A stretch of DNA of 60,401 bases from Candidatus Omnitrophota bacterium (GTDB lineage: Bacteria > Omnitrophota > Gorgyraeia > Zapsychrales > Zapsychraceae), in the NCBI GenBank assembly GCA_030637405.1, contig DAOWGP010000052.1, forward strand, positions 1 through 60,401, given 5' to 3'. Shown piece after piece: positions 1 to 14,823 of this stretch. Within the stretch, counting starts at the first letter, position 1; each line of letters opens with the position of its first letter. The notes beneath the pieces were generated by a model. That model searched no databases. It was given only the letters and a program-made list of their open reading frames with translations, and was not told where the DNA came from. The position numbers were made by a program, and so were the translations under genes.

Positions 1-242
1 ATAAAATCAAATTGAAGAGGATTATCTGGATAGATGGTAATTCCTTCAACAATAGCCGGTGTATAGCTTGGGCTAAGAGTAATCATTGTCCCCGGGGCAG
101 GAAGATTAGCTACACCTGCCTGTCCGGCAGGCAGGCTTTGGGCATAGGAAACAGGCGTGATACTCATGCCAAGAAAAGGTATTAAGAGGCTGAGAATAAG
201 GACCCGACCGCGTGCCCTAAATCTTCTTTTGCGGATAAACAT
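1..242 (-). CDS. 5' end of a second giant-protein paralogue (runs off window; absent from ORF track)
   Basis: GGAGG RBS then ATG at 242; MFIRKRRFRARGRVLILSLLIPFLGMSITPVSYAQ...NLPAPGTMITLSPSYTPAIVEGITIYPDNPLQFDF aligns with NLPVPGSMVTMTPAFTPTMITGVNIYPDNPLKFDF of the 217..5970 protein; signal-peptide-like start. Confidence 0.85.
   Translation of the reverse strand, partial: MFIRKRRFRARGRVLILSLLIPFLGMSITPVSYAQSLPAGQAGVANLPAPGTMITLSPSYTPAIVEGITIYPDNPLQFDF
115..135. repeat. REP-like palindrome CCTGCCTG-TCCGG-CAGGCAGG inside coding sequence
   Basis: Perfect 8-bp arms; near-identical intergenic copy at 58065..58086. Confidence 0.75.
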
Positions 243-3200
243 TAATGAAATCCTCCCCGCGGCAAAGCCGCGTGGAAACCTTTTGATTGTTTCGCGTGTT
301 GTTTAAAACAATATTTATCCTGTACGGACAGTGCGTCGCGCTATTCTTAACAGGATTGTTTTTTTCAATCGCAAACCCTAACTCCATCGGTACCGATTGG
401 GAATCAGAATCCGCGTCAGCATACGGCGCGTCTTCACTTTCGGTCAATCCTAACAACAGCGGTAAATTGATCACCGGCGCAACATTGATAATCACGGGCG
501 CGAAACCCTGGATATTCATATTCCGTAAATCCCGGATCATCCGCGGCGCCGCCGGCATTACCACCCCGCTTCCGTCACTCTCAACCTGCATGTCCATTTC
601 ATTGGGGTTCAAGTCAATACCGCCTTTTTCCATTTGCTCAATCCCACTGCGTTCTCTGCCCATCATCGGCGAGGATGAAATTTCTGCGATTTTGTCATTC
701 ACCATAGTCAGCACTTGAAGCGCGCCCTCTTCATTTTGTCCCACATAATTCAAATTATCTAGATCCGAAATCTCCGCAGATTTCCCAAAATTAAGAATTA
801 GTGCGCCCGGACCAGCAGCTCGCGCCATGCCGGACCCTTTTGTGTTGTCTTCAGTATATTCATCATCCCATACTGAAATATACTCAGGAAGAAGATTATT
901 TCCTGTGATATCTTTAACCCAAGAAAGGCCTTCCTTTGCCGCTATGAATTTATCAGAAAAAGCCATTTGAAGAACACCATAATCCGGAAGCGCGCGTACA
1001 AGGATGTTTTTAGTCAATTCAGAACCCACAAAGAGTTTTTGAAATAATTCCTGACTACGAAGCGTCTTGGTCTCGAACCCCCCAGCTTTCTTCCCCCCAA
1101 TGAGAAGACGTAACCTTGTTGGATCCTCACGTCCACCAACGTCATCATCAAAGATGGCGGTATCAGGTAAGCCAAGCTCATATTTTACTCTTTTAAATTG
1201 TTGCATAACTTCAGCTACTTGCTTATCAGAGAATGGTTTCCGAAACAGATTTTCAACATCACCCTGCTTTTTTCCTGACTTCACAAAAGTTCGTTTCTCA
1301 CCGCCATTTCCCGTTATAACCAGAATACGATGCCGGATATCCCTGGGAAACTGCTCTAAAAAGACTTTATCAGCCCCAGTATTATCCTTAACGGTATAAA
1401 GCCCACCGGTAACCAAAACAAAATATCCTCCTGCCCTTAAAAATCGCTCAATCGCACCACGAACTTTGGGGCGGAGTTTTTCAAGAACGTTCTGCTTTTT
1501 CAATGCTGTTCCCTCTAGATCACTAAGAATCAGTCTCGGGTATTGATCTAGATTGTTCCAATCCCCAACAAAACTCTCAATGCCTTTCTGTACCTCTGCC
1601 GTCACCGGTGAGAAAGTTTTTTTACCCTCTGTACTATCGGGCGTTATAGGTGAAGAAGTAGCCCGGAATTCTTCCCACGTCAATGGTAATTCCGCAGTTC
1701 GTTTAACAATCTTCAGGAACGCATCCTTCTGCCACTCTAGAAACAACGGCATTCCCTCGCCTATTTCTTCACGCTGCGTTTTCAATTTATCATAAGTTTT
1801 ATCATAAACTGCCTCAGCATCAAAAGGCTTCATACTTTTCAGCCAGTACTTGTTCTCCATCAGCTCATCCCTGAAGACAGAAACAAGCGAATACAACATG
1901 TCGTAGGGATTATTCGGTAAAGAACTCTCATACGATACTAGCCATTGCAGCTGAGGATTTCCTCTCAGGCCTTCTATTTTCTTAAAATCATCAAAATATT
2001 CAACCAGTCTTTTGTAATCATGCTCTGAGAGGCTATTCGCAACATACTGGATTCTTCGATAGTCAACAGGTATTAGGGAAACCCCCCGGTTTTTAAGAGT
2101 TTGCCTTTCCACTTTTCCTGCCGTCTCCCAGTCCGCTCCAAACCCGATCTTATCCACAAGGTCATCACGCCCTTCCGGCACGAGACGCTTCACCCGCTCG
2201 ACATAATAAGACCGAAATAGGTCCGGAATAAGCTCCAGATAATCTTCGTCCGTCACGGAATTACCGATAAACCGAAGCTGGTACCCTTTCAGTTCCTGCA
2301 AATATTTTATACCCGCATAACTCTCCTTTTTCATTAAACCCCGCATAAATTCCGTTCGCGTAGATGGAGACACGCCTTCCTTTTCCACAATACCGTCAAC
2401 CGCTCGCAGAGCCTCTTCATCCAGCTCAAAACTTCTCGGGGCAATTCCCGATACAGCTTCCAGCCCATGAGTCAATCCTTTACCATACCGCCAGGCCAAT
2501 GCAGGGGCCTTGTCAAGGCCTCCTAACCCCCAAAATTGTTTTTGAACTCTGAAAAAGTCTTTGATAAATTTTTCCCCTTCTTGCTTTACAACAGCCGCCT
2601 CATCATCATTTACCGCGGCGCTCAAAGTATCATGTTTCTGCGCAAGAATATTTAAGATGCCCTCAAAAAAAGGCAATTGGTCAAACAGCAGAACCTTTTT
2701 TAATCTGACTTCCCGCTTCTCTTCTTTGAAACCATTAGTTGTGGACCTGTCCCAGAATCGTAAGGTTAAATTCTCACCCCGCAAATCTACGATCTGTCCG
2801 CCGGCAAGCAACCCCTGCCCACGGCCAAAAAGCCCCTTCAGGTCTTCTTCCGTTTCATCATTCAATGTCCCAAATCTATTTTTACTGCTGAGTTGAAACT
2901 TGAGCAATAAAAACCGCCCCAGGGCTATAGTACGCATATCACCGCTAAAATATCTTTCATTTACTTCTTCCCCTTCCAATGGGCGCTCACCTAATTTGAC
3001 CAATGGCTGGGGATGCTTAAAGATATCAGTGTCCGCAATCACCTCTTTAAGCCACTCCACAAGCGCTTTTTCTCCTTCAACACGCATACCTTCCATTATT
3101 TCATCCAAGTTAATGCCATAACGGCTAAACAATATCTTATGTTTTGGAAGAAGAAGGCCATATATGCGGTTTCGCATGATCTGTTCTGCAAGTGACCTGT

Positions 3201-5970
3201 TGTTAATCTGAAAATGCGTCTGCTTAGCAGCATCAGGCCCTCTTTTGGCAATGGCCTCGGCATTAAGGCGGTCGACCAAGGGATCCTCTGTAAATCCCCG
3301 GAGGGCTACAGTTCCCGCGTGCTGCTCCTCAAAGGAAGGTCCAGTTCGCCCCCGCGTCCCTTCCCGCATCATAGATCTAGGACGGCGTATTCTCGCAGAC
3401 ACATTCACATTGTACGACAGGTCAAAATGTTCGAAAGCAGTTAATGTCAGCATACCTTCGAAATGAACGATTTCTCTTTTATCTCCTCCTGGTTTAACCG
3501 GATTCCATATCTCCAAAGCTTCTACAGCACTTTCCTGGCTGAGAAAAACATCCTCTCCCTTATCTTCCATCGCGACAAAAATCCCCTCAGCTCTTGATTC
3601 TATCGTATGCTTAGCCTTGTTAACTGTCTGTCCCTTGTGATTAATGGATATATTAAAAATGTTTTCATTTCCTGCCGGGTTCTTCAGCTCAATCCACATA
3701 CTGCCTAAGAAAAACTTTGCCGATTCTCCCGGCTCTACAATTTTATCTTTTAATTTCTTAGTTCTCTCTCCCCTCTTACCCGTATTTTTATCTCTTTCAA
3801 CCTTCCATACCCTGTATAAAATATTCCCGTTTTCCCGAAATTCAACCGTCAACTCCTTCTCGCCATTAAAAAGCGTCATTAGATTATTTTCATCCAGCCC
3901 GTATTTCAACTGCCCCTTAGCGGTTTGATCGTATAAGGGCGCTACAGCAGGTTTATTTTTAGCCACTAATCTTACAAATTCTATATACCGTTTAACATTA
4001 AATTTTATCAGCGGGTCTTCTGTGGCTGGGTCCGGCCGATCGGTTTTTTCCAGTAAAAAATCATCAAAAGATTTGGGCAGAGTAATCCAGAATTTATTTT
4101 CCTCAGATACAACGGCCGCGATAATATCCGCAACCGTTGTTTTGCCGCTACAAAATGTACCCGCACCCCCAAATGCTAAACGCAGCTTATCAGTGTTTTC
4201 TAGCAATAGCTTTATTTGCTCTCGTATAAGATCCTTATAATCTTGCTCCTCAGAAAACTGATCTGAGAGCGCAAGAATTAAATTATCCCGCAATTCCTGC
4301 AAGCGCCCAACCACTGGTTGAGCATCCTGCTTTAATTCCGCAAAAAGCTGCGCTTTTCGATATTCAAGCCCCTCCTTTAATTCTGCTAACTCTTTATCCT
4401 TTGCATGAAATCGCGTAATCAGAGGATTTTTTTTAAATGTTTCTTCTAAAGATGATTGCATTGCTTTAACAAACTGTTGGTCATCCACCAAGTCAACAAA
4501 ATTTTGTTGGATAAGATCATAAAATGTTTCTAACTCTTGTTTCATTTCAGAACGATCATCCTGTAACTGAGCTATTTTCTTATGATAAAACTCAATCGCA
4601 TCTAAATGTGAGAACCCCTTAACTTCTCCTGGTTCTTTGATTGCGTCATCTCCCATCACCGGCGAGGAGGTGGGGCTTTTACCCGGTTGCGATTGCGCGT
4701 CTAATTCTGTTATCACAACTTCACTGTCTGATTCTGAAGCCTCAATGGCCGATGAGGCTTCTCGCTCTGCAATCACCTCAAGCTCTACTGTTGTTTTCTT
4801 AAAGTCACCTTCTTTACCTTGAATGGGTGAACTTACAGTTCCTCCTCCATCTTTCTTCTGCACAACAACTGTTTCCGGTGCATATGGCAACGCGCCGCCC
4901 GAGAAATACTTTCTTGGAATCACTTCTTGAGTCGCCGGATCGTAGTCTTCCTTAATGTAATTGTAAACGCCCTTCTCAAAGGCCTCGATATATTGCCGGT
5001 AAATTTTCTCTTTGACTTGTGTATCCTCCGCATCAACGCCTTTGGTCATGTTTTGGTCAACATAGACCTGGCCTAAAACGCTTTCTTTAAGAGCCTGTTT
5101 ATACCACACTGCTAAGATCATAGAATTATAAATCTGTCTTAAATTGGCGAATGTTGCCCCCTCATTGACTTCACGTTCAATTTCCGGGATCAAAACCTCG
5201 CGCACCACCTGGGAGGAAACACCGCTGATCGTTTCGATATCCTCCAGGCTAACATTTCCTAACCCGTGTTTTGTGCTCGTTTTATTGCTTTCAAGGGCCA
5301 GGTAATCTTCTTCAAGCATCACATTCAGATAACTGCTGATCACAAACGCGCCTTTGGCATGTTCATAGACTTTAGCTTCCTTGGGCACAATCCAGATCTT
5401 ATTAAAGGTATTCATCGGGATTTCCGTAGTACCGAACTGTTCATAAGCCTTTTTGTAAACGCGATCCCAGAATTTCTTCCCCAGTTCATCTTCCGGATAC
5501 ATCAATGAAGCGCTCAGTTGTTTGAGCAGGTAATCCTGCGCCAAGAGATCACGTCCCATTTCTGTACGGCCGAACCCTTCGGGGATAATTCGGTCTTTTT
5601 CATAGGGCGAGAGGTTGACCCACATCTCATCTTCAGGGACAGTGAGCGACGCCATAAAATACTTAATGAGCTTCTCCGATTCATCCTCAAAGGCCTCGTC
5701 ATTAAGGTCGGAATCACCTCTGTTAATAATAAAGTCGAATTTAAGGGGATTGTCAGGGTAGATGTTAACCCCTGTTATCATCGTAGGGGTAAAGGCTGGC
5801 GTCATGGTAACCATGCTCCCGGGAACCGGCAGATTTAATATGGTCTGCGGCATGATTTGGGCATCGACCGGCGGCGGAATAATTACGCTGAAAATAAACG
5901 CAAAAGCAATGAAGGCGGATAAAGCCCGGTAGATAAAAGTAGACCGTCGCTTTTCGATAAAGGTGATCAT
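217..5970 (-). CDS. Large secreted modular protein: conserved N-domain, P-loop kinase-like and HAD-like cargo, GGIDL C-terminal motif
   Basis: 1917-aa ORF with GGAG RBS and N-terminal signal; GAGTFCSGKTT Walker A (~aa 601); LILSDLEGT HAD motif I (~aa 1481); KGGIDLNP...GFAPVIINV near the C-terminus; true 3' end uncertain. Confidence 0.8.
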   Translation of the reverse strand: MITFIEKRRSTFIYRALSAFIAFAFIFSVIIPPPVDAQIMPQTILNLPVPGSMVTMTPAFTPTMITGVNIYPDNPLKFDFIINRGDSDLNDEAFEDESEKLIKYFMASLTVPEDEMWVNLSPYEKDRIIPEGFGRTEMGRDLLAQDYLLKQLSASLMYPEDELGKKFWDRVYKKAYEQFGTTEIPMNTFNKIWIVPKEAKVYEHAKGAFVISSYLNVMLEEDYLALESNKTSTKHGLGNVSLEDIETISGVSSQVVREVLIPEIEREVNEGATFANLRQIYNSMILAVWYKQALKESVLGQVYVDQNMTKGVDAEDTQVKEKIYRQYIEAFEKGVYNYIKEDYDPATQEVIPRKYFSGGALPYAPETVVVQKKDGGGTVSSPIQGKEGDFKKTTVELEVIAEREASSAIEASESDSEVVITELDAQSQPGKSPTSSPVMGDDAIKEPGEVKGFSHLDAIEFYHKKIAQLQDDRSEMKQELETFYDLIQQNFVDLVDDQQFVKAMQSSLEETFKKNPLITRFHAKDKELAELKEGLEYRKAQLFAELKQDAQPVVGRLQELRDNLILALSDQFSEEQDYKDLIREQIKLLLENTDKLRLAFGGAGTFCSGKTTVADIIAAVVSEENKFWITLPKSFDDFLLEKTDRPDPATEDPLIKFNVKRYIEFVRLVAKNKPAVAPLYDQTAKGQLKYGLDENNLMTLFNGEKELTVEFRENGNILYRVWKVERDKNTGKRGERTKKLKDKIVEPGESAKFFLGSMWIELKNPAGNENIFNISINHKGQTVNKAKHTIESRAEGIFVAMEDKGEDVFLSQESAVEALEIWNPVKPGGDKREIVHFEGMLTLTAFEHFDLSYNVNVSARIRRPRSMMREGTRGRTGPSFEEQHAGTVALRGFTEDPLVDRLNAEAIAKRGPDAAKQTHFQINNRSLAEQIMRNRIYGLLLPKHKILFSRYGINLDEIMEGMRVEGEKALVEWLKEVIADTDIFKHPQPLVKLGERPLEGEEVNERYFSGDMRTIALGRFLLLKFQLSSKNRFGTLNDETEEDLKGLFGRGQGLLAGGQIVDLRGENLTLRFWDRSTTNGFKEEKREVRLKKVLLFDQLPFFEGILNILAQKHDTLSAAVNDDEAAVVKQEGEKFIKDFFRVQKQFWGLGGLDKAPALAWRYGKGLTHGLEAVSGIAPRSFELDEEALRAVDGIVEKEGVSPSTRTEFMRGLMKKESYAGIKYLQELKGYQLRFIGNSVTDEDYLELIPDLFRSYYVERVKRLVPEGRDDLVDKIGFGADWETAGKVERQTLKNRGVSLIPVDYRRIQYVANSLSEHDYKRLVEYFDDFKKIEGLRGNPQLQWLVSYESSLPNNPYDMLYSLVSVFRDELMENKYWLKSMKPFDAEAVYDKTYDKLKTQREEIGEGMPLFLEWQKDAFLKIVKRTAELPLTWEEFRATSSPITPDSTEGKKTFSPVTAEVQKGIESFVGDWNNLDQYPRLILSDLEGTALKKQNVLEKLRPKVRGAIERFLRAGGYFVLVTGGLYTVKDNTGADKVFLEQFPRDIRHRILVITGNGGEKRTFVKSGKKQGDVENLFRKPFSDKQVAEVMQQFKRVKYELGLPDTAIFDDDVGGREDPTRLRLLIGGKKAGGFETKTLRSQELFQKLFVGSELTKNILVRALPDYGVLQMAFSDKFIAAKEGLSWVKDITGNNLLPEYISVWDDEYTEDNTKGSGMARAAGPGALILNFGKSAEISDLDNLNYVGQNEEGALQVLTMVNDKIAEISSSPMMGRERSGIEQMEKGGIDLNPNEMDMQVESDGSGVVMPAAPRMIRDLRNMNIQGFAPVIINVAPVINLPLLLGLTESEDAPYADADSDSQSVPMELGFAIEKNNPVKNSATHCPYRINIVLNNTRNNQKVSTRLCRGEDFINVYPQKKI

Positions 5971-6384: not shown

Positions 6385-7203
6385 TTAATACAATCCATAT
6401 CCCCGCATGATCCAGACAATGATGGCATCGCCCCAGAACAAGCATATAATGGCACCCAGGACCAGGAAAGGCCCATAGGCGATCGCTGTATCTTTAGTGC
6501 GGATCTTCTCAATAATACCATAGACCGCGCCGAAAAACGGAGCGATAAAGAAAGCCAATATGGCCATCTTCCACCCCATAAAGGCCCCGACCATAGCCAT
6601 AAGCTTAACGTCACCGCCGCCCATAGACTCTTTCTTGAAAAGAAAGTCTCCAAGCATACCCATTAAATAAATGGATCCGCCGCCAACCAAAACACCTAAA
6701 AGCGATAGGCCCAAAGACTGTAAATGGGCCATGATCAAAGACTGCCCATGCAGCACAACATCATGCAACTGGGGGATAAACACGCTGAAAATAATCCCGG
6801 CTATCATGCCGCCGATACTGATTTCATCAGGAATGATCCGGTGTTCAAAATCAACAAAAGTCGCCACAATAAAACCAGAGATCATAACAAGATAGGGCCA
6901 TAAAAGAACCGTTAGCCCAAAATACCGGTAAAAAAATAAAAAGATGGATGCCGTGATCAACTCAATAATAAAATACCGTATAGAGATTTTCGCGCCACAG
7001 AACCGGCATTTCCCACGTAAAATTAAATAACTGAGAAAGGGAATATTGTCGTGCCAGGGGATCATTTTTTTGCAATGCACACAATGCGAACGGGGCGCGA
7101 CAATAGATTTCTCATGAGGCATACGGACAATACACACATTCAAGAAACTTCCGACGATCGCGCCTAAAACAAACATAAAAACACCGATAACGTCAATACC
7201 CAT
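6385..7203 (-). CDS. pilD: Prepilin peptidase/N-methyltransferase (A24)
   Basis: GSFLNVCIVR, RSHCVHC and RGKCRFC Zn motifs, MGGGDVKL catalytic motif, multiple TM helices. Confidence 0.93.
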   Translation of the reverse strand: MGIDVIGVFMFVLGAIVGSFLNVCIVRMPHEKSIVAPRSHCVHCKKMIPWHDNIPFLSYLILRGKCRFCGAKISIRYFIIELITASIFLFFYRYFGLTVLLWPYLVMISGFIVATFVDFEHRIIPDEISIGGMIAGIIFSVFIPQLHDVVLHGQSLIMAHLQSLGLSLLGVLVGGGSIYLMGMLGDFLFKKESMGGGDVKLMAMVGAFMGWKMAILAFFIAPFFGAVYGIIEKIRTKDTAIAYGPFLVLGAIICLFWGDAIIVWIMRGYGLY

Positions 7204-8069
7204 TATGTCTTAACTCCTTCCTCAAGACTTTTGCGCATTTTATTTTTAATATCATCATTAAGCTCAATATTGGCCCAATGCTGAAAAGCTAAAACACCCT
7301 GATAATAGAGCATCCCGAGCCCATTGGATACGCGAGCCCCTTTTTCCCTTGCCTCCCTTAGAAACACTGTTTCCTCCGGATTATAAATAACGTCATACAC
7401 CAACATATTGGCATGAAACATTTCTGCCTCGAAGAGGCAAGGGTCGCCTTCATGCATGCCAACCGGCGTAGCATTAATTAAGAAATCCGAGGTCGCAATA
7501 TTTAGGTCATCCATGCTCCGCGCACTCTCAACAATGCTTAAATCAATCCTTTCCTTGAGGTCTTCAACAAGTTGATCGGCTTTCTCCTTGACCATGTCAT
7601 AAATACGTATCGACTCCGGCCTTTCCTCAACAAGACAAAGAGCGGCAATAATGGCTCTTGATACACCGCCGGCTCCAAGGATTGCAACGCGTTTATCCTT
7701 CGTTTGAAATCCCAGTTCCGCGAGATGCGATAAGAATCCGGGCGCATCAGTATTGTGCCCGATAAGCTTTCGCTCTTCATCAATGACAATCGTGTTGATG
7801 GCCCCGACTTTTTTCGCAAACGGCGTTAAAACGTCCAAATATTTCAGCGCTATTTCTTTATACGGCACCGTAATGTTGAGCCCAAAAATGGGACTTTCCT
7901 TATCCCGTAATTCTTTAAAGAATCCGGCAAGCTCTTCTTCCTTCAAAGGAAAGAGCTTGTAGAGAGCATCTACCCCAAGCTCTCTAAATGCCGTATTATG
8001 CATTAAGGGCGACAGGCTATGCTCAACGGGATACCCGACGATTCCATATAACGATCTGTTTTCAGGCAT
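7203..8069 (-). CDS. aroE: Shikimate dehydrogenase
   Basis: HSLSPLMHN, NITVPYK, GAINT, NTDAPG, GAGG, NATPVG, NGLGML motifs. Confidence 0.95.
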   Translation of the reverse strand: MPENRSLYGIVGYPVEHSLSPLMHNTAFRELGVDALYKLFPLKEEELAGFFKELRDKESPIFGLNITVPYKEIALKYLDVLTPFAKKVGAINTIVIDEERKLIGHNTDAPGFLSHLAELGFQTKDKRVAILGAGGVSRAIIAALCLVEERPESIRIYDMVKEKADQLVEDLKERIDLSIVESARSMDDLNIATSDFLINATPVGMHEGDPCLFEAEMFHANMLVYDVIYNPEETVFLREAREKGARVSNGLGMLYYQGVLAFQHWANIELNDDIKNKMRKSLEEGVKT

Positions 8070-8138
8070 AAATCAATTCTCCACAAATTCTCAAAGCGTT
8101 TGTGAGAAGGTTAAAATCTCGTGTAAAAGTATGGAAAC

Positions 8139-9671
8139 TCAATGCTTCTGGCCGGATTGTTGAGAAAGCACTTTATTGATGGCATTAATATACGCCTTCG
8201 CCGAAGCTTCTAAGATATCTGTGCTGGCCCCATGGGTAATAACGCTCTTCTCCTTCATCTTCACCTTAACGGTAACCTCACCTAAAGCGTCTTTTCCATG
8301 GGTAACAGACTGAATGGAATAATCTAACAATTCGCCTTTTATTTTCGTAATCCCTTCGACGGCTTTATAGCACGCGTCAACCAATCCATCACCGGAAGAA
8401 GTTTTTTTATACTCTTTACCTTTTGATTTTAAAACCACTTCGACATTCGGCGCGACATTGGTTCCGCTTGTCGCGGATAAACTCACCAAGCTCCATACCT
8501 TCTGGAAACCTTTCACCTCGTCCTCAACGATCGCAATTAAGTCCTCATCAAAAACATGTTTCTTTTTATCCGCAACATTCTTAAAACGGTCAAAAGCTTT
8601 ATCAACCTGGCTTTCTTTTAATTCAATCCCCAAACTTTTTAACCGGTCTTTAAAGGCATGCCGTCCGGAATGCTTTCCTAACACCAAACCCGTCCCGACA
8701 AACCCAACATCTTCAGGGCGCATGATCTCATAGGTTGAGCGTTCCTTTAAAATGCCATCCTGATGAATGCCGGCTTCATGGCGAAACGCATTGCCCCCGA
8801 CGATCGCCTTATTGGGAGATACAACGAAACCTGTATATTTACTCACTAAACGCGAAACACGGCATATCTCCCGCGTGTTTATTCCCGTTTTGCATCCATA
8901 AATATCCGAGCGCGTTTTAATTGCCATGACAATTTCTTCCATTGAAGCATTGCCGGCCCGCTCACCAATACCGTTAACCGTGCATTCAACCTGCCTGGCT
9001 CCTTGGCGCACAGCTTCCAGGGAATTAGCAACACCAACGCCTAGATCATCATGGCAATGGACAGAAATGATCGCCTTGTTAATATTGGGAACATTGTTCT
9101 TTATATCCGCGATAAGCCCTCCATATTCCGCCGGAATGCTGTATCCTACCGTATCCGGAATATTTACGGTCGTCGCCCCCGACTTGATCACTTCCTCAAG
9201 AATTCGAAACAAGAATCCCCGCTCGCTGCGGGAGGCATCTTCCGGTGAGAATTCAACATCAACCACCTTCTTTTTAGCATATTTAACCGCGTCGACAGCC
9301 ATCTTTAAGATCTCTTCCTGGGTTTTCTTCAACTTATGCTGCATGTGGATCTTTGACGTTGCTAAAAAGACATGAATTCGTTTGTTTCTAGCCCCTTTCA
9401 ATGCTTCATGCGCGGCGTCAATGTCCTTTTTGATCGAACGGGCCAGCCCGCAGACAGTCGATTCCTTAATGTGTTTGGCAACCGCATGAACAGCATCAAA
9501 ATCTCCTTTTGAGATGACAGGAAATCCCGCCTCAACGATATCCACGCCTAAGCGCTCAAGCGCATAGGCGATCTCCAGCTTTTCCTGATGGTTCATACTC
9601 GCGCCCGGCGCCTGCTCACCGTCACGTAAAGTCGTATCGAATATGAGAACTCTGTCTTTTTTCTTTGTCAT
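8139..9671 (-). CDS. leuA: 2-isopropylmalate synthase
   Basis: FDTTLRDGEQAPG, HCHDDLG, GIGERAGN, HEAGIHQDG, C-terminal regulatory domain. Confidence 0.96.
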   Translation of the reverse strand: MTKKKDRVLIFDTTLRDGEQAPGASMNHQEKLEIAYALERLGVDIVEAGFPVISKGDFDAVHAVAKHIKESTVCGLARSIKKDIDAAHEALKGARNKRIHVFLATSKIHMQHKLKKTQEEILKMAVDAVKYAKKKVVDVEFSPEDASRSERGFLFRILEEVIKSGATTVNIPDTVGYSIPAEYGGLIADIKNNVPNINKAIISVHCHDDLGVGVANSLEAVRQGARQVECTVNGIGERAGNASMEEIVMAIKTRSDIYGCKTGINTREICRVSRLVSKYTGFVVSPNKAIVGGNAFRHEAGIHQDGILKERSTYEIMRPEDVGFVGTGLVLGKHSGRHAFKDRLKSLGIELKESQVDKAFDRFKNVADKKKHVFDEDLIAIVEDEVKGFQKVWSLVSLSATSGTNVAPNVEVVLKSKGKEYKKTSSGDGLVDACYKAVEGITKIKGELLDYSIQSVTHGKDALGEVTVKVKMKEKSVITHGASTDILEASAKAYINAINKVLSQQSGQKH

Positions 9672-9737
9672 GGCATTAAACTCGTCGTATTGTTTTGCCC
9701 CTTCGCTTTGCTCCAGGGGCGACGGCGCACTAACACT

Positions 9738-10364
9738 TTACGTCACTATGTTCCGTAAAGTGTGTGCTTGTCGAAACTCTTTGATCTTTTTACGGGCAAA
9801 ACCAACTGAAACATGATCTGATCCGCTGCCGAATTTGTTGGCATGAGAGGTAATCTTGATCTGGTCAAGCTCGTCATATGTTACATGACGTCTTTTTTCG
9901 CCAACCAAACAAAGGTTTAATCCTTTCCTCTCGACAGTAACCGGCTCAATGCCAAAAAGCTTAACAAATGCCGGCAATGTCGCCTCTGAATAACCCCACT
10001 TGTGGTTTCCAAAGTGCCCAATATAGGTTTTAGATTCCCACATATTTTCGCCGAAAATAAAATCGACGAAATTATCATACCCGAATTTAAAATATTTAAA
10101 AAGAATCTTTTTAAAATTCGGGACTTGAAGGGTCACCTTCCCGCCTATCTTTAAAACCCTTATCCATTCATAGAAAACAACAAAGCGGAGATATTTATCA
10201 AAATGTTCCAGCACATCCTCGGCCAGAATTTCATCGGCAGCCAGATCATCATAAGGCAAAGGCTGGCTGATATCATGGAGAAGATCCGGCTGACATGCTT
10301 CGACCGAATCGATATTGATCCACCCTTCAAGTTTTTTTGTCCCGCAACCTAGATGTAACTTCAT
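9738..10364 (-). CDS. Class I SAM-dependent methyltransferase-like protein
   Basis: KLHLGCG...GWINID, VLEHF, RVLKIGG motifs. Confidence 0.8.
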   Translation of the reverse strand: MKLHLGCGTKKLEGWINIDSVEACQPDLLHDISQPLPYDDLAADEILAEDVLEHFDKYLRFVVFYEWIRVLKIGGKVTLQVPNFKKILFKYFKFGYDNFVDFIFGENMWESKTYIGHFGNHKWGYSEATLPAFVKLFGIEPVTVERKGLNLCLVGEKRRHVTYDELDQIKITSHANKFGSGSDHVSVGFARKKIKEFRQAHTLRNIVT

Positions 10365-10448
10365 GGGATTTTACAATTCCGTTGCTTGTTGCTCATTGTT
10401 CGTCAATCACATCCTCCGAGCAACGATTCACAAGCAACGATTTACGAT

Positions 10449-11441
10449 TTATTTCTTCATCCAGGGCATCATCTCGCGAAGAGTTTTCCCGACCTTCTCA
10501 ACGGAATGATTCTGTGAATCTTTACGGAACGTATTAAAATTAGGTCGCCCTTTTTTATTCTCACGCATCCATTCCCGCGCGAATTTCCCGGATTGAACCT
10601 CAGCAAGGATCTTTTTCATCTCTTTGCGCGTGCGGTCATTAATAATCCTGGGCCCTCGTGTATAGTCGCCATATTCCGCCGTATCTGAAACACGGCTTCT
10701 CATTCCCTTAATACCGTGTTCATAAATAAGATCAACGATCAGTTTTAATTCATGCACGCATTCGAAATACGCCATTTCAGGAGCGTATCCCGCTTCAACC
10801 AATGTTTCAAAACCCGCCTTCATAAGCTCACTTGCGCCACCACAGAGAACAGCCTGTTCGCCAAAAAGATCTGTTTCGGTTTCTTCCCTGAAACTGGTTT
10901 CAAATATACCGGCCCGTCCGCCACCGATCCCTTTGGCATACGCTAAGGCATCTTTAAGCGCGTTACCGGAAGCATCCTGATGGATCGCGACCAGACACGG
11001 CACGCCTTTACCTTCCTCGAACTGACTTCGGACTAAAGCCCCGGGGCCTTTAGGCGCGATCATCCATACGTCGATGTCTTCCGGCGGTTTAATTTGCCCG
11101 AAATGAATATTAAATCCATGAGAAAAAGCGATCGATTTTCCCTTTGTTAAATAACGTTTCAGTGATTTCCTGTAAATGACCGCCTGAACATGATCCTGAG
11201 TTAATATCATAATCACATCGGCCTTCTTCGCCGCATCTTTCGCTTTGATAGGTTTAAACCCATCTTTTTTCGCGATTTCATAATTGGGCGAATCGGGAAG
11301 TTCAGCAATAATAACGTTTAGCCCACTATCGCGTAAATTTAACGCCTGGCCGCGCCCCTGAATGCCATAACCGATAATGGCGATGGTCCGGTCTTTATAC
11401 ACATCTAAATCAGCATCTTTGTCATAGTAAATTTTTGCCAT
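10449..11441 (-). CDS. ilvC: Ketol-acid reductoisomerase (start corrected to ATG 11441)
   Basis: [41 protein letters not shown]; AAGGA RBS before 11441. Confidence 0.96.
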
Positions 11442-11470
11442 TTTTCTTCCTTTCTTTAACAAATCGCTTC

Positions 11471-12577: not shown

Positions 12578-13306
12578 TTATTGATCGTTATATTTATACT
12601 TTATCTTGCTGATGCGAACCACTTTCCTTTTACCATTATTAGGACTAACATAATTCTTATCAAACAACACATAATTTGTGCCATCTTCTTTCACAGAACT
12701 CGGAAAACCAATTCCATCATATCTTTTTGATTTAATGAAATCTGAAATAATTTGAGTCGAAGCATAATGTATGTGACGTAATTGAGGAAGAACTGGGGAT
12801 GAGACTAAAAATTGAACAGTATCGATTAAAGTAACCTTATGAGAATCAGCACCTGCTGCAAGTCTGACCGCACCGCTTGTGATCTTGGAAAAATCTATTA
12901 TTTGAATATCCTTATTTAATGTTAACGTAAATATGGTGACATAAGCAGATAAAAGAGGCTTCACTTCATATATTGCCGTCTCCATTTCTTTCGATAAATA
13001 TTGATATGAAAATCCAGGAGGATTGAATCTGCCTCCACAATTTTGTGTAGTATTATTGTATTGGTATTCTAAAGGAGAAGATAATCCGAAATCTTTTATG
13101 GTATCATGAATTTTAGCCCAATAAAATTTCGTGCCTTCTTTAAAAGTAATTTTATAAGAATATTGGTCAATAAGTTCATTTAATAACTCTTTTGTGTTTT
13201 CTAAAGGAAAGGACCGATTGTGTTCCTTAGACCTAAGAATAAAAAAACGAAATCTTTCTTCAAAAGGCAAACTGTCGATTTTCTTTGACGAATCTGAAGT
13301 TGTCAC
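12578..13306 (-). CDS. RES-domain protein (NAD+ phosphorylase/ART-fold family), cassette-borne
   Basis: GGRFNPPGFSYQYLS, TAIYEV, YASTQIISDFIK, YDGIGFPSS, GTNYVLF. Confidence 0.85.
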   Translation of the reverse strand: MTTSDSSKKIDSLPFEERFRFFILRSKEHNRSFPLENTKELLNELIDQYSYKITFKEGTKFYWAKIHDTIKDFGLSSPLEYQYNNTTQNCGGRFNPPGFSYQYLSKEMETAIYEVKPLLSAYVTIFTLTLNKDIQIIDFSKITSGAVRLAAGADSHKVTLIDTVQFLVSSPVLPQLRHIHYASTQIISDFIKSKRYDGIGFPSSVKEDGTNYVLFDKNYVSPNNGKRKVVRISKIKYKYNDQ

Positions 13307-13857: not shown

Positions 13858-14823
13858 TTACCGTAACAACTTAATCAGTTTCAAATACTCATCTACATGT
13901 TTATTCTCACGTTTGCAAGCCATCGGCAGATCAACAACATTGATCTCATCTTCCCAAACGCCGACCGCTTTGCCAGAGATGCCCCGCATAAACAGATCAA
14001 CAGCTTGAGCCCCCAACCGGGTCGCTAGAACGCGATCATCCCCGACGGGAGTGCCGCCACGTTGGACATGCCCTAAAACAACAAAACGTGTTTCTAATCC
14101 GGTCATTTCTTTAATCGTACCGGCAACATCCGGCGCTTTTGCGGCTCCTTCGGCCACAATGATCATCCAGCTGACTTTTCCAAGCTTGTTCCCCCGAACA
14201 ATATTTTGATAGAGCTCGTTATAGTCGAATTTACGTTCAGGAATAATAACGTCCTCAGCGCCGGCGCCTAAGGCCACCTCAAGAGCAATATAGCCGGAAT
14301 GGTTTCCCATTACTTCAATAACAAAGATCCGCTCCATACTATGCGCCGTATCACGAATTTTATCGATCGATTCCAGCGCCGTATTGACAGCCGTATGACA
14401 GCCGATTGTTTGATCCGTTCCACATAGATCATTATCAATGGTGCCGGGCAATCCAATCGTAGGAATATCATGCTTTCCTGAAAGATCTTGTGCCCCGCGG
14501 TAAGACCCGTCGCCGCCGATGACAATAACCGCGTCAATCGCGTGCTTCTTTAATATTTGAAGCGCGGCTTTCTGGCCTTCTTCCGTCTTAAATTCCTTAG
14601 ACCGAGCTGTTTTGAGAATCGTCCCGCCACGGTTAATAATATTCGAAACAGAGCGGTGGTTCAGCGGGATAATCTCATCGTCAATCAAGCCCTGATAGCC
14701 GCGAATAATGCCGGCAACTTCTAACCCGTTAGATAATGAACAGCGTACAACGCTGCGGATCGCCGCGTTCATTCCCGGCCCGTCACCCCCGGAAGTTAAG
14801 ATACCGACTTTTTTAATTGCCAT
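13858..14823 (-). CDS. pfkA: ATP-dependent 6-phosphofructokinase
   Basis: LTSGGDGPGMNAA, GGTILKTAR, IGGDGS, PGTIDND, EVMG, LGHVQRGG. Confidence 0.96.
   Translation of the reverse strand: MAIKKVGILTSGGDGPGMNAAIRSVVRCSLSNGLEVAGIIRGYQGLIDDEIIPLNHRSVSNIINRGGTILKTARSKEFKTEEGQKAALQILKKHAIDAVIVIGGDGSYRGAQDLSGKHDIPTIGLPGTIDNDLCGTDQTIGCHTAVNTALESIDKIRDTAHSMERIFVIEVMGNHSGYIALEVALGAGAEDVIIPERKFDYNELYQNIVRGNKLGKVSWMIIVAEGAAKAPDVAGTIKEMTGLETRFVVLGHVQRGGTPVGDDRVLATRLGAQAVDLFMRGISGKAVGVWEDEINVVDLPMACKRENKHVDEYLKLIKLLR

Follow-up and report, generated by a model that had tools for sequence, protein, structure and literature searches.

In the head-cargo-tail proteins of this Omnitrophota lineage, SSP[VILM] opens each cargo module, and the synonymous sites of the codons at these junctions are conserved, which is a new observation. 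What is selected in the first place is the amino-acid motif; its serines are encoded by TCN in some copies and by AGY in others, and D-x-A-M takes its place at equivalent junctions elsewhere. We lean, with modest confidence, towards a second function for the delimiter, in which its coding DNA doubles as a short-homology crossover point for module exchange.

The giant gene and its repeat pair

The gene that harbors the repeat lies at one end of the window (the whole 60,401-nt stretch of DNA analysed here) and is composed as follows.

217..5970, minus strand: giant gene, 1917 aa, with signal peptide, conserved head, cargo modules and conserved tail (ORF list, translation)
5863..5970, minus strand: N-terminal signal or anchor, aa 1-36, with KRR, a hydrophobic stretch and VDA-Q (translation, by eye)
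4834..5862, minus strand: conserved head domain, aa 37-379 (55-87% identity to family members)
4825..4833, minus strand: SSP delimiter 1, aa 380-382, VSSPIQG, AGT TCA CCC (motif search; the next segment is conserved in P0005)
4652..4668, minus strand: repeat copy 1, which is SSP delimiter 2, aa 435-440, SSPVMG, TCC TCG CCG GTG ATG GG (repeat search)
1657..4650, minus strand: cargo module A, aa 441-1438, a coiled coil followed by a P-loop-containing block (translation; homologue P0205)
1648..1656, minus strand: SSP delimiter 3, aa 1439-1441, TSSPITP, TCT TCA CCT (4 residues past the end of P0205 homology)
676..1647, minus strand: cargo module B, aa 1442-1765, weakly HAD/Cof-like (NCBIfam TIGR00099, E 0.044, below the cut-off)
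659..675, minus strand: repeat copy 2, which is SSP delimiter 4, aa 1766-1771, SSPMMG, TCC TCG CCG ATG ATG GG, opening the tail (repeat search)
361..675, minus strand: conserved tail, aa 1766-1870, GGIDLNP ... GFAPVIINVAPVINLPLLLGL (alignments to family members)
1..302, minus strand: start of the head of a second family gene, directly downstream and truncated where the contig stops (phmmer of the head against ORF o847, E 1e-12)

The two 17-mers, TCCTCGCCGATGATGGG at 659-675 and TCCTCGCCGGTGATGGG at 4652-4668, are identical at 16 of 17 positions on the minus strand and start 3993 nt, or 1331 codons, apart. The sequence-only reading had described them as a direct repeat in a common frame, and both the window search and the ORF frame bear this out: allowing up to 3 mismatches, only these two known copies were found in the 60-kb window against 0.11 matches expected from shuffles, none of 100 shuffled windows held two or more, and both copies are read in the frame of the giant ORF. 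The further claim that they bracket the whole cargo block comes close to the mark. The pair does enclose aa 441-1765, that is, module A and the HAD-like module B, and within this gene the consensus codons are confined to these two copies, which form the outermost pair around the cargo. Two more SSP motifs lie immediately past the head (aa 380) and between modules A and B (aa 1439), and their codons differ from those of the 17-mer pair.

Four SSP[VILM] delimiters in one 1917-aa protein compare with 79-82 genome-wide. Among the 82 SSP motifs of the genome, distributed over 18 ORFs, identity of at least 16/17 was found in 1 of 266 within-gene pairs, which is the pair described here, and in 3 of 3055 between-gene pairs, one of the three being a contig-end overlap. 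The 12-mers TCCTCGCCGGTG and TCCTCGCCGATG have 1 and 2 copies in the genome, respectively. The pair is non-random when compared with random DNA but is not exceptional when compared with the genome's own SSP population; a single within-gene pair at 16/17 is about what the between-gene rate predicts, and the pair alone is therefore no evidence.

Module A has a single homologue, P0205, found in a search that covered proteins of 1054-3355 aa (41% identity across aa 532-1435). There module B is absent, module A sits alone between head and tail, and the orthologous cargo is bracketed by SDAAM and SDQAM in place of SSP. The alignment with P0002 picks up again at aa 1762, which is 4 residues ahead of delimiter 4. 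A Pfam and NCBIfam search of the whole protein returned sub-threshold matches only. The impression by eye that the cargo is more AT-rich than its flanks was confirmed at synonymous sites: GC3 is 0.519 in the head, 0.600 in the tail and 0.405 in the cargo overall, all inside the genome's 5-95% range (0.362-0.624), and inside the cargo it amounts to 0.329 in the coiled coil, 0.440 in module A and 0.352 in module B. The same difference is seen family-wide, with head above cargo in 86 of 92 genes and tail above cargo in 53 of 69.

A delimiter peptide and its codons across the family

The giant protein has all the features of the Omnitrophota head-cargo-tail proteins: an N-terminal signal or anchor (as read from the translation), a head of ~330-340 aa, a tail, and delimited, unrelated cargo. 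Its head (aa 37-379) matched 8054 cluster representatives at E<=1e-3 and 6268 at E<=1e-30; 3345 matches were found among 8000 scored candidates, with 52-83% identity across the 119 other matches listed. The family thus counts thousands of genes, up to 33 per genome. The tail (aa 1783-1845) shares 59% identity with P0002 and 56% with P0005 and follows the pattern GGI[DN]LNP ... PVI..I.P...LLG, with GGI[DN] near the C-terminus in 57 of 80 genes of the loci set. Cargo Pfams differ even between genes with the closest heads. An AlphaFold model of the head (pLDDT 75.4, pTM 0.77) gave 0 Foldseek matches in the PDB at E<=0.001 (best E 0.055) and a best VIA Z of 3.7, so that neither search found a protease-like or any other PDB match for it. 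Even the smallest of the complete SSP-type members inspected, P0158 (603 aa), carries a module of ~150 aa, and a fully empty head-tail gene was not seen among the members inspected.

SSP is strongly enriched in these proteins (261 observed against 35.9 expected in 120 family members), with the logo [A/S/V/T]-S-S-P-[V/I/L/M] and no conservation in the flanks. Only 1 of 108 motifs, from 17 proteins, falls inside a Pfam best stretch, where 18.4 would be expected, and the usual position is 6-15 aa ahead of a domain start, which upholds the earlier view of SSP motifs as junctions of exchangeable cargo modules. Other lineages have the alternative delimiter D-x-A-M (DAAM 43 against 1.1 expected; D.AM 138 against 12.9). 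Both types are hardly ever mixed within one gene, and the type goes with the genome, not with the head tree (8 changes over 18 SSP, 41 DxAM and 48 unclassified heads). For RSExR, GARLA and N[AS][AS]VL, no locus of the loci set had three or more copies.

The codons of the motif are strongly biased. For 80 motifs from 20 genes, the second serine (S2) is TCG in 45 (12.0 expected), the first (S1) is TCC in 28 (13.8 expected) and TCG in none (12.0 expected), and the proline is CCG in 53 (30.8 expected); AGY codons occupy S1 in 28 of the 80. TCGCCG is present at 40 of these 80 motifs compared with 9 of 97 non-motif Ser-Pro pairs. The giant gene's own genome, with 79 motifs, shows 27 TCG against 9.7 expected, and 47 motifs from independent metagenome loci show TCC 32 and TCG 36 times (8.6 expected for each) and CCG 38 times (19.8 expected). 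Within a merged non-redundant set of 174 motifs from 16 sources, the exact 9-mer TCCTCGCCG is found at 41 (24%), present in 10 sources, and at 59 with up to 1 mismatch, and an alanine preceding the motif is GCC in 48 of 59 cases (19.1 expected); the giant gene's genome has the exact 9-mer at 7 of its 79 motifs. The possibility, raised together with the original claim, that SSP codon choice simply matches the background does not hold, given the bias in three data sets and in the merged 174 motifs. The idea of SSP DNA as a strictly conserved site has to be given up, with the exact 9-mer at 41/174 only and AGY at S1 in 28/80. In context controls, Ser before Pro is TCG at a frequency of 0.20 and Pro before Val is CCG at 0.46, and sequence context accounts for only part of the motif codon bias.

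Motifs of the same gene also resemble each other in their codons. Out of 3 codons, 1.58 are identical within a gene (156 pairs), compared with 1.04 between genes of the same genome (357 pairs) and 1.03 between genomes (2642 pairs), and none of 1000 permutations reached the observed within-gene value. DxAM junctions are alike in their G/C-ending bias (GCG 102 against 49.4 expected; GAC 88 against 51.6), and a third-base pattern C-C-G-G-G, limited to ~5-6 codons, is common to both delimiter types; the ATG of the DxAM type is invariant by motif definition. Conserved head columns show a weak NCG preference (TCG 0.30 vs 0.18; CCG 0.45 vs 0.38), and in the giant gene's genome the head's invariant Ser-Pro (LSPYE) is encoded by codons other than TCG CCG. 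Among the 34 tRNAs of this 92%-complete assembly, tRNA-Pro(CGG), tRNA-Ala(CGC) and tRNA-Val(CAC) are present, and tRNA-Ser(CGA) was not found. Genome-wide, the 9-mer has 32 copies, ~7 of them in motifs by hand count, and it is not enriched outside family genes.

Several simpler causes of these patterns were rejected. GC-biased gene conversion as the sole cause of the codon bias is incompatible with a GC3 excess limited to codons -2..+3, and a general G/C-ending preference at conserved residues is real but too weak. From the codon usage of individual genes, only 0.67 and 0.62 identical codons are expected in place of the observed 1.58 and 1.04. An internal start after SSP is at odds with the variety of codons at position 4 (GTG 44, ATG 15, GTT 24, GTC 19, GTA 11, GCN 12; n=174).

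Module exchange at the delimiter

Only three independent comparisons, with 4-5 breakpoints, show where modules begin and end to be shared. The clearest is a 470-codon PGK module common to two family genes (L016, aa 575-1046; L111, aa 2025-2496) at 94% nucleotide identity: the identity sets in at CCC GCC TCC TCG CCG and ends directly past the next TCC TCG CCG, the sequences on either side are unrelated, and between the heads identity is only 83%. Two contigs of the giant gene's own genome (C37 and C38) have 189 nt in common at 96% and diverge straight after an SSP, a split that may represent paralogues or variants. In the third comparison, a pair of orthologues (L062 and L068, 92% identical) differ by a module of ~150 aa, with divergence directly past an ADRAVLAS junction. 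Recent module sharing with breakpoints exactly at SSP-coding DNA is thus supported by the first two cases. If linkers are very short, selection for intact modules could also place breakpoints at the motif.

At the giant gene itself, empty or alternative alleles, suggested as a check in the sequence-only reading, did not turn up: no joint 659-675/4652-4668 or alternative junction was seen in 4 runs of one study, searched as contigs, which drop rare variants, and the variation seen in them consists of SNPs and small indels only. Nor did 4 same-genus genomes yield an orthologous locus that carries other cargo; the same-genus loci have the head alone in common. One syntenic contig (G004) stops just short of the gene's position, and another genome (G001) has aroK-dprA-topA there. 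The closest relative, P0002, has 83% head identity and a PGI cargo; its contig was not among the matches of the metagenome scan, the best of which reached 77%. No integrase, recombinase or transposase Pfam was detected at E<=1e-6 in the 39 window ORFs of at least 150 aa. The neighborhood therefore lacks the adjacent recombinase of integrons and shufflons among these 39 ORFs, and the delimiter lacks their strict core DNA; a silent cassette array of the vlsE type carrying the same repeat is also missing, the 17-mer occurring just twice in the 60-kb window. All in all, the proposal of SSP DNA as an in-frame recombination or insertion site retains the junction position, the codon bias and the breakpoints, and loses the strict site, the alleles and the recombinase.

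Explanations for the conserved junction DNA

Members of the family begin with a signal peptide and have a ~340-aa head and a GGIDLNP tail, both fixed, around enzyme modules that are interchangeable. The SSP peptide would be read by a processing or recognition factor. Its preferred nucleotide string is (GCC) TCC TCG CCG (GTG), the only sequence that otherwise unrelated modules have in common and the place at which modules are seen to pass between genes. Such exchange would most likely proceed by in-frame recombination at short homology (illegitimate or homology-facilitated), and by homogenising junction DNA it could produce both the synonymous bias and the within-gene concordance. Both copies in the giant gene use the preferred string, with x-Met-Gly after each by coincidence, and the 16/17 identity results from this. 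What has been observed comprises the motif and its place at the junctions, its replacement in other lineages, the bias and within-gene concordance of its codons, and breakpoints that coincide with it; we infer recombination within motif DNA, homogenisation behind the bias and any cleavage or recognition that the peptide may undergo. Against this explanation, junction DNA is conserved only statistically, with the exact 9-mer at 24% overall. The G/C-ending bias of DxAM and the third-base pattern common to both types are not obviously predicted by homogenisation and hint at an RNA- or translation-level constraint.

Such a constraint is central to a purely protein-level account, in which SSP is a processing, sorting or recognition signal, its DNA plays no part in recombination and the 17-nt identity is a side effect. 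Here codon preference would come from selection on translation or mRNA (accuracy, decoding kinetics, an RNA-binding or cleavage factor), and breakpoints would fall at the motif because recombinants cut elsewhere are non-functional. We take this to be a real possibility, albeit an unlikely one. It agrees with a peptide kept across serine codon families (AGY at S1 in 28/80) and substituted by D-x-A-M in other lineages, with the C-C-G-G-G pattern over ~5-6 codons in both motif types, with the weak NCG preference in conserved head columns, and with a repeat pair unexceptional among the genome's motifs, as well as with the lack of a recombinase family in the 39 window ORFs and of variant alleles in the 4 runs (contigs). 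It is hard to reconcile, however, with a motif bias far above that of conserved head residues (TCG 0.52-0.77 vs 0.30; GAC 0.50 vs 0.36), with the LSPYE Ser-Pro of the head, which goes without TCG CCG in its own genome, and with a within-gene concordance beyond codon usage that site-wise translational selection does not predict; slow decoding is not evident either, as dedicated tRNAs for CCG, GCG and GTG exist (34 tRNAs, 92%-complete assembly). At the other extreme, the ~15-nt junction could be the target of a specific recombinase that moves whole modules in frame from one family gene to another, much as happens at integron attC/attI or shufflon sfx sites, the peptide being its tolerated translation. 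The recurrence of GCC TCC TCG CCG RTG across lineages, a genome-specific motif type, which looks as though it co-evolved with some factor acting in trans, the shared module that is exact at both breakpoints, and the enormous cargo diversity, with up to 33 family genes per genome, would all suit such a dedicated system. Exact sites nonetheless make up 24%, and many junctions keep the peptide with 2-4 nucleotide changes, which a site-specific enzyme would not tolerate; no recombinase or integrase family occurs among the 39 window ORFs, neither excision nor an alternative arrangement was seen in the 4 runs (contigs), and the 9-mer shows no enrichment outside family genes (~7 of 32 genome copies in motifs by hand count). 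We consider it most improbable.

Another idea is that the 17-mers are the scar of one event, the junctions, duplicated or retained, of a single insertion of aa 441-1765 into an empty head-tail gene. Although the two copies are the gene's only ones with consensus codons and the outermost around the cargo, and although within-gene concordance is general, P0205 has module A without module B, so the cargo was assembled in at least two steps; in addition, an extra SSP (aa 380) lies ahead of copy 1, a pair like this one has a non-negligible chance of arising in the motif population, and an empty allele was found neither in the 4 runs (as contigs) nor in the 4 same-genus genomes. A single insertion is very unlikely on these grounds. 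Rather improbable, too, is a more far-reaching form of our preferred crossover explanation, an in-frame cassette economy in which a 12-15-nt junction is at once peptide delimiter and nucleotide address for the cut-and-paste of whole enzymes between carrier genes. The junction would be (GCC) TCC TCG CCG (RTG) here and GAC nnG GCG ATG in other lineages, its uniformity per genome might be kept by the exchange process or by a trans-acting factor, and the third-base pattern of both delimiter types might reflect one conserved recognition at the nucleic-acid level.

Parallels to known systems are partial. The central cassette of Borrelia burgdorferi vlsE is flanked by 17-bp direct repeats and varies by segmental gene conversion from an adjacent silent cassette array, which underlies antigenic variation. 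As in the giant gene, in-frame 17-bp direct repeats surround a variable middle, there of a surface-protein gene with constant ends, and the vlsE middle is replaced by recombination; here, unlike vlsE, no silent array was seen, the cargo consists of whole enzymes unrelated to one another, the repeat belongs to a large genome-wide set of delimiters and no switching was observed. Shufflons, whose sfx sites lie within the pilV coding sequence in plasmid R64 (Rci recombinase), and integron attC cassettes likewise define exchangeable gene segments by short conserved DNA sites, but they have a recombinase beside the sites and strictly conserved core sequences, whereas the 39 window ORFs scanned here contain no recombinase and the exact 9-mer stands at 41/174 sites only. 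In viral polyproteins (for example at picornavirus 3C and potyvirus NIa sites), a strictly conserved short peptide marks each border between the self-contained proteins of one long ORF, much as SSP recurs here. The differences are that the modelled head has no recognisable fold and that cleavage at the delimiter is putative; we know of no report of synonymous-site conservation of this kind at viral cleavage sites.

Long 'multi-enzyme metabolic cluster' proteins of Omnitrophota (>=10 kAA) have been treated by their Pfam content, and their cleavage into parts has been proposed (bioRxiv 10.64898/2026.06.07.730766; West-Roberts et al. 2023, bioRxiv 10.1101/2023.11.21.568195). In the available parts of these papers, they resemble the present family in lineage, in signal peptides and in unrelated enzymes in series (PGM, starch synthase, HAD, response regulators); the ~340-aa head, the GGIDLNP tail, the delimiter peptides and the junction DNA features are not described in those parts. 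The accessible text of West-Roberts et al. 2023 (10.1101/2023.11.21.568195) states the cleavage points as unknown and does not contain the word 'recombination'. A search for literature linking Omnitrophota with 'polyprotein' found none.

Head-cargo-tail genes accept almost any enzyme as cargo, and what is at stake is the origin of this diversity and the handling of the products. Exchange through delimiter codons, if true, would explain the in-frame shuffling of whole enzymes between carrier genes and would provide a rule for the sites of recombination and, possibly, of processing. Even if the cause of the codon bias is translational, the delimiters would be marked as sites read at the nucleic-acid level.

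The 17-nt repeat and its peptide

A motif search of the window located both of the near-identical 17-mers that the sequence-only reading had taken as a direct repeat bracketing the cargo, and both lie in the frame of the giant gene:

217–5970, minus strand: giant ORF, 1917 aa (ORF list and translation)
659–675, minus strand: 17-mer copy TCCTCGCCGATGATGGG, encoding SSPMMG at aa 1766 (motif search)
4652–4668, minus strand: 17-mer copy TCCTCGCCGGTGATGGG, encoding SSPVMG at aa 435 (motif search)

The copies are separated by 1331 codons and are the only matches in the whole window at ≤3 mismatches (0.11 expected; 0/100 shuffles reached two). Two further SSP motifs are found in the giant protein, at aa 380 (VSSPIQG) and aa 1439 (TSSPITP), and five more large window ORFs contain none. 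A peptide delimiter is the ordinary way to explain the repeat.

That SSP is a peptide delimiter is established. Among 120 proteins of the head-cargo-tail family, 261 copies of SSP are present where 35.9 would be expected, with the logo [A35 S26 V9 T9]-S-S-P-[V46 I21 L11 A7 M7] and flanks without conservation. In 17 proteins with Pfam matches, 1 of 108 delimiters falls inside the Pfam best stretch (18.4 expected), and domains are closely bracketed, e.g. 860<[866-963]<991 and 1104<[1118-1531]<1574. Most other genomes are without SSP and carry D-x-A-M-[L]-[A/S] (DxAM) at equivalent places (DAAM 43 vs 1.1 expected, D.AM 138 vs 12.9), each gene having either one type or the other. The only homologue found for the first cargo module of the giant protein, P0205, holds it between SDAAM and SDQAM at the places of the second and third giant-gene SSP, and the second module is absent from it. 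On a midpoint-rooted FastTree of the heads, where branch support was not assessed, SSP-type genes lie interspersed with DxAM-type ones, with 8 parsimony changes, indicating that delimiter type follows the genome and not the gene lineage. The first serine (S1) is encoded by AGY in 28 of 80 motifs, so it is the amino acid that is held and not the DNA. In ORF o3345 (own-genome contig C141, aa 708), ASSPISDNAMLL has an SSPI delimiter followed at once by a DNAM(L) delimiter, which may be a transitional junction between the two motif types.

The head-cargo-tail family and its surroundings

The head, a conserved N-terminal 340 aa behind a signal-like segment, matched 8054 cluster representatives in a full HMMER scan (E≤1e-3) and 3345 of 8000 scored candidates in a word-indexed search; records that carry a name belong to Omnitrophota or are mislabelled 'Planctomycetales' MAGs. 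Related genomes have up to 33 head matches and the own genome at least 6, and head-bearing proteins span 369–4969 aa among the 150 matches listed. Cargo Pfams vary by protein (PGI, PGM, UGPase, PGK, GAPDH, enolase, aldolase, PPDK, HEAT repeats, response regulators). P0002, the closest relative, has aa 1-362 (83%) and aa 1762-1867 (59%) in common with the giant protein and nothing between, and the last ~47 residues past the tail are apparently non-conserved. A structure search with the head model (pLDDT 75.4) found no PDB match. Multi-enzyme giant proteins are already in print (10.64898/2026.06.07.730766; 10.1101/2023.11.21.568195; PMC10066038); the texts consulted gave no account of the head-tail frame, of the delimiters or of the delimiter DNA, and a literature search pairing 'Omnitrophota' with 'polyprotein' had no match.

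The cargo, in parts suspected by eye of being more AT-rich than its flanks, is so at synonymous sites (GC3 0.405, against 0.519 in the head and 0.600 in the tail; genome ORFs 0.481 ± 0.075). Family-wide, heads and tails lie ~0.10 above the cargo of the same gene (92 genes; head > cargo in 86/92, tail > cargo in 53/69), and variable head columns are higher too (0.507 vs 0.434 for cargo). The excess may stem from ectopic conversion between paralogous heads, from expression or from cargo origin.

Directly downstream, a second family gene starts at window 1-302, minus strand (head, phmmer E 1e-12), overlapping the final codons of the giant gene in a different frame and truncated by the contig end. 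Elsewhere in the own genome, contig-spanning ORFs of C111, C6, C108 and C61 overlap end to end in that order by 138-141 nt at 100%, which would add up to a single giant ORF, punctuated by SSP and about 10,000 aa long, that the assembler split; C97, with a head, joins C30 by the same kind of overlap. The window also encodes, on the minus strand, a RES-domain protein amid housekeeping genes (12578-13306; PF08808, E 3.4e-15), possibly the toxin partner in a RES-Xre pair, and an ordinary stand-alone phosphofructokinase (13858-14823; PF00365, E 4.6e-106), so that the cell also has conventional cytoplasmic glycolytic genes beside carrier-borne enzyme modules.

Codon choice and concordance at the delimiters

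Codon choice at SSP departs from background in three motif sets; agreement with background was among the outcomes that the sequence-only reading had named as refuting it.

Codons at SSP delimiters, observed (expected); S1, S2, P and V are successive positions. Expected counts in the 80- and 47-motif sets are from gene-specific codon usage; the 47 motifs come from 10 ORFs, one gene counted twice.
80 motifs, 20 genes, 8 genomes: S1 TCC 28 (13.8), S1 TCG 0 (12.0), S2 TCG 45 (12.0), P CCG 53 (30.8), V GTG not tallied
Own genome, 79 motifs: S1 TCC 22 (12.3), S1 TCG 2 (9.7), S2 TCG 27 (9.7), P CCG 49 (33.2), V GTG 15/43 (8.3)
Independent metagenome loci, 47 motifs: S1 TCC 32 (8.6), S1 TCG 1 (8.6), S2 TCG 36 (8.6), P CCG 38 (19.8), V GTG 11/17 (4.4)

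TCGCCG is present in 40/80 motifs vs 9/97 non-motif Ser-Pro pairs. In a merged set (174 motifs, 39 ORFs with near-duplicates dropped, 16 sources), exact TCCTCGCCG occurs in 41 motifs from 10 sources, and alanine before SSP is GCC in 48/59 (19.1 expected). Dipeptide context accounts for part of this bias, not all (Ser-before-Pro TCG 0.20, Ser-before-Ser TCC 0.14, Pro-before-Val CCG 0.46). The excess is limited to codons -2 to +3, which argues against broad GC-biased conversion; conserved head columns show a weak version (TCG 0.30 vs 0.18, CCG 0.45 vs 0.38, GAC no difference). Bias is also seen at DxAM junctions (GCG 102 vs 49.4 expected, GAC 88 vs 51.6), a result replicated in independent metagenome loci. 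The two junction strings, nnC TCC TCG CCG GTG (SSP) and nnC GAC nnG GCG ATG CTG (DxAM), have a third-base series C-C-G-G-G over five codons in common though the peptides differ, and none of the explanations tested accounts for it.

Copies within a gene also agree with each other.

Identical codons, of three, per SSP pair (5 pairs with homologous flanks set aside).
Within a gene: 156 pairs, mean 1.58, all three identical 21.8%
Other genes, same genome: 357 pairs, mean 1.04, all three identical 8.7%
Other genomes: 2642 pairs, mean 1.03, all three identical 7.6%

Within-genome permutation reached the observed within-gene concordance in 0/1000 trials. Gene codon usage was rejected as its source, predicting only 0.67 vs 0.62. 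Some family genes are near-uniform, L066 and L089 for instance (TCC TCG CCG GTG G at 4/4 motifs and GCC AGY TCG CCG GT at 7/9, respectively). The 17-mer pair exemplifies this tendency and by itself is unremarkable: among 82 own-genome motifs in 18 ORFs, identity of ≥16/17 is reached by 1/266 within-gene and 3/3055 between-gene pairs.

Module boundaries and exchange

All-against-all DNA comparison of family genes returned few recently shared non-collinear segments. The clearest is a PGK module, 94% identical between L016 aa 575-1046 (genome G007, genus g4) and L111 aa 2025-2496 (a metagenome contig identical to L027 of genome G008, genus g5). Identity starts at CCC GCC TCC TCG CCG and ends immediately past the next TCC TCG CCG, with unrelated sequence on both sides; the heads of the two genes are 83% identical over 120 codons. 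Own-genome contigs C37 and C38 have 189 nt in common at 96%, and their divergence sets in immediately past an SSP. L062 and L068, orthologues with 92% identity, differ in that a ~150-aa module of one is replaced by 7 residues in the other, divergence starting directly past an ADRAVLAS junction and its opposite end not lying at a motif. Segment ends at delimiters in these three pairs indicate that modules travel as delimiter-bounded cassettes; in the sequences compared, the delimiter codons are the sole sequence common to the joins.

Empty or alternative alleles at the repeat junctions, expected for cargo exchange at this site, did not appear in four runs of one study (contigs only), and no giant-gene orthologue was found in four same-genus genomes. 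The neighbouring leuA/ilvC/aroE/A24-peptidase block (window 6385-11462) is syntenic in two of the same-genus genomes, at L097 (G004:C64) and L098 (G001:C129), with 73-80% nt identity. In genome G001 the A24 peptidase gene runs straight on into aroK-dprA-topA, genes that in the own genome stand at the end of contig C70, so the family genes represent a whole-gene insertion or deletion difference in a housekeeping neighbourhood.

Among the 39 ORFs of the window that were scanned, none matched a recombinase family, and exact 12-mers of the junction occur in just 1 and 2 copies in the own genome. On present evidence, a dedicated system of the integron kind is unlikely. An explanation at the protein or RNA level alone, with codon preference coming from translation and breakpoints from selection, is less likely though plausible; the third-base pattern common to SSP and DxAM junctions favours it. 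The recombination role that the sequence-only reading gave to SSP DNA survives in part: synonymous conservation, within-gene concordance and exact breakpoints speak for it, and the AGY serines show that what is held is the peptide. The junction string would serve as a short homology for in-frame module exchange between genes, and such exchange would homogenise the junction DNA, a model that fits these three lines of evidence together.
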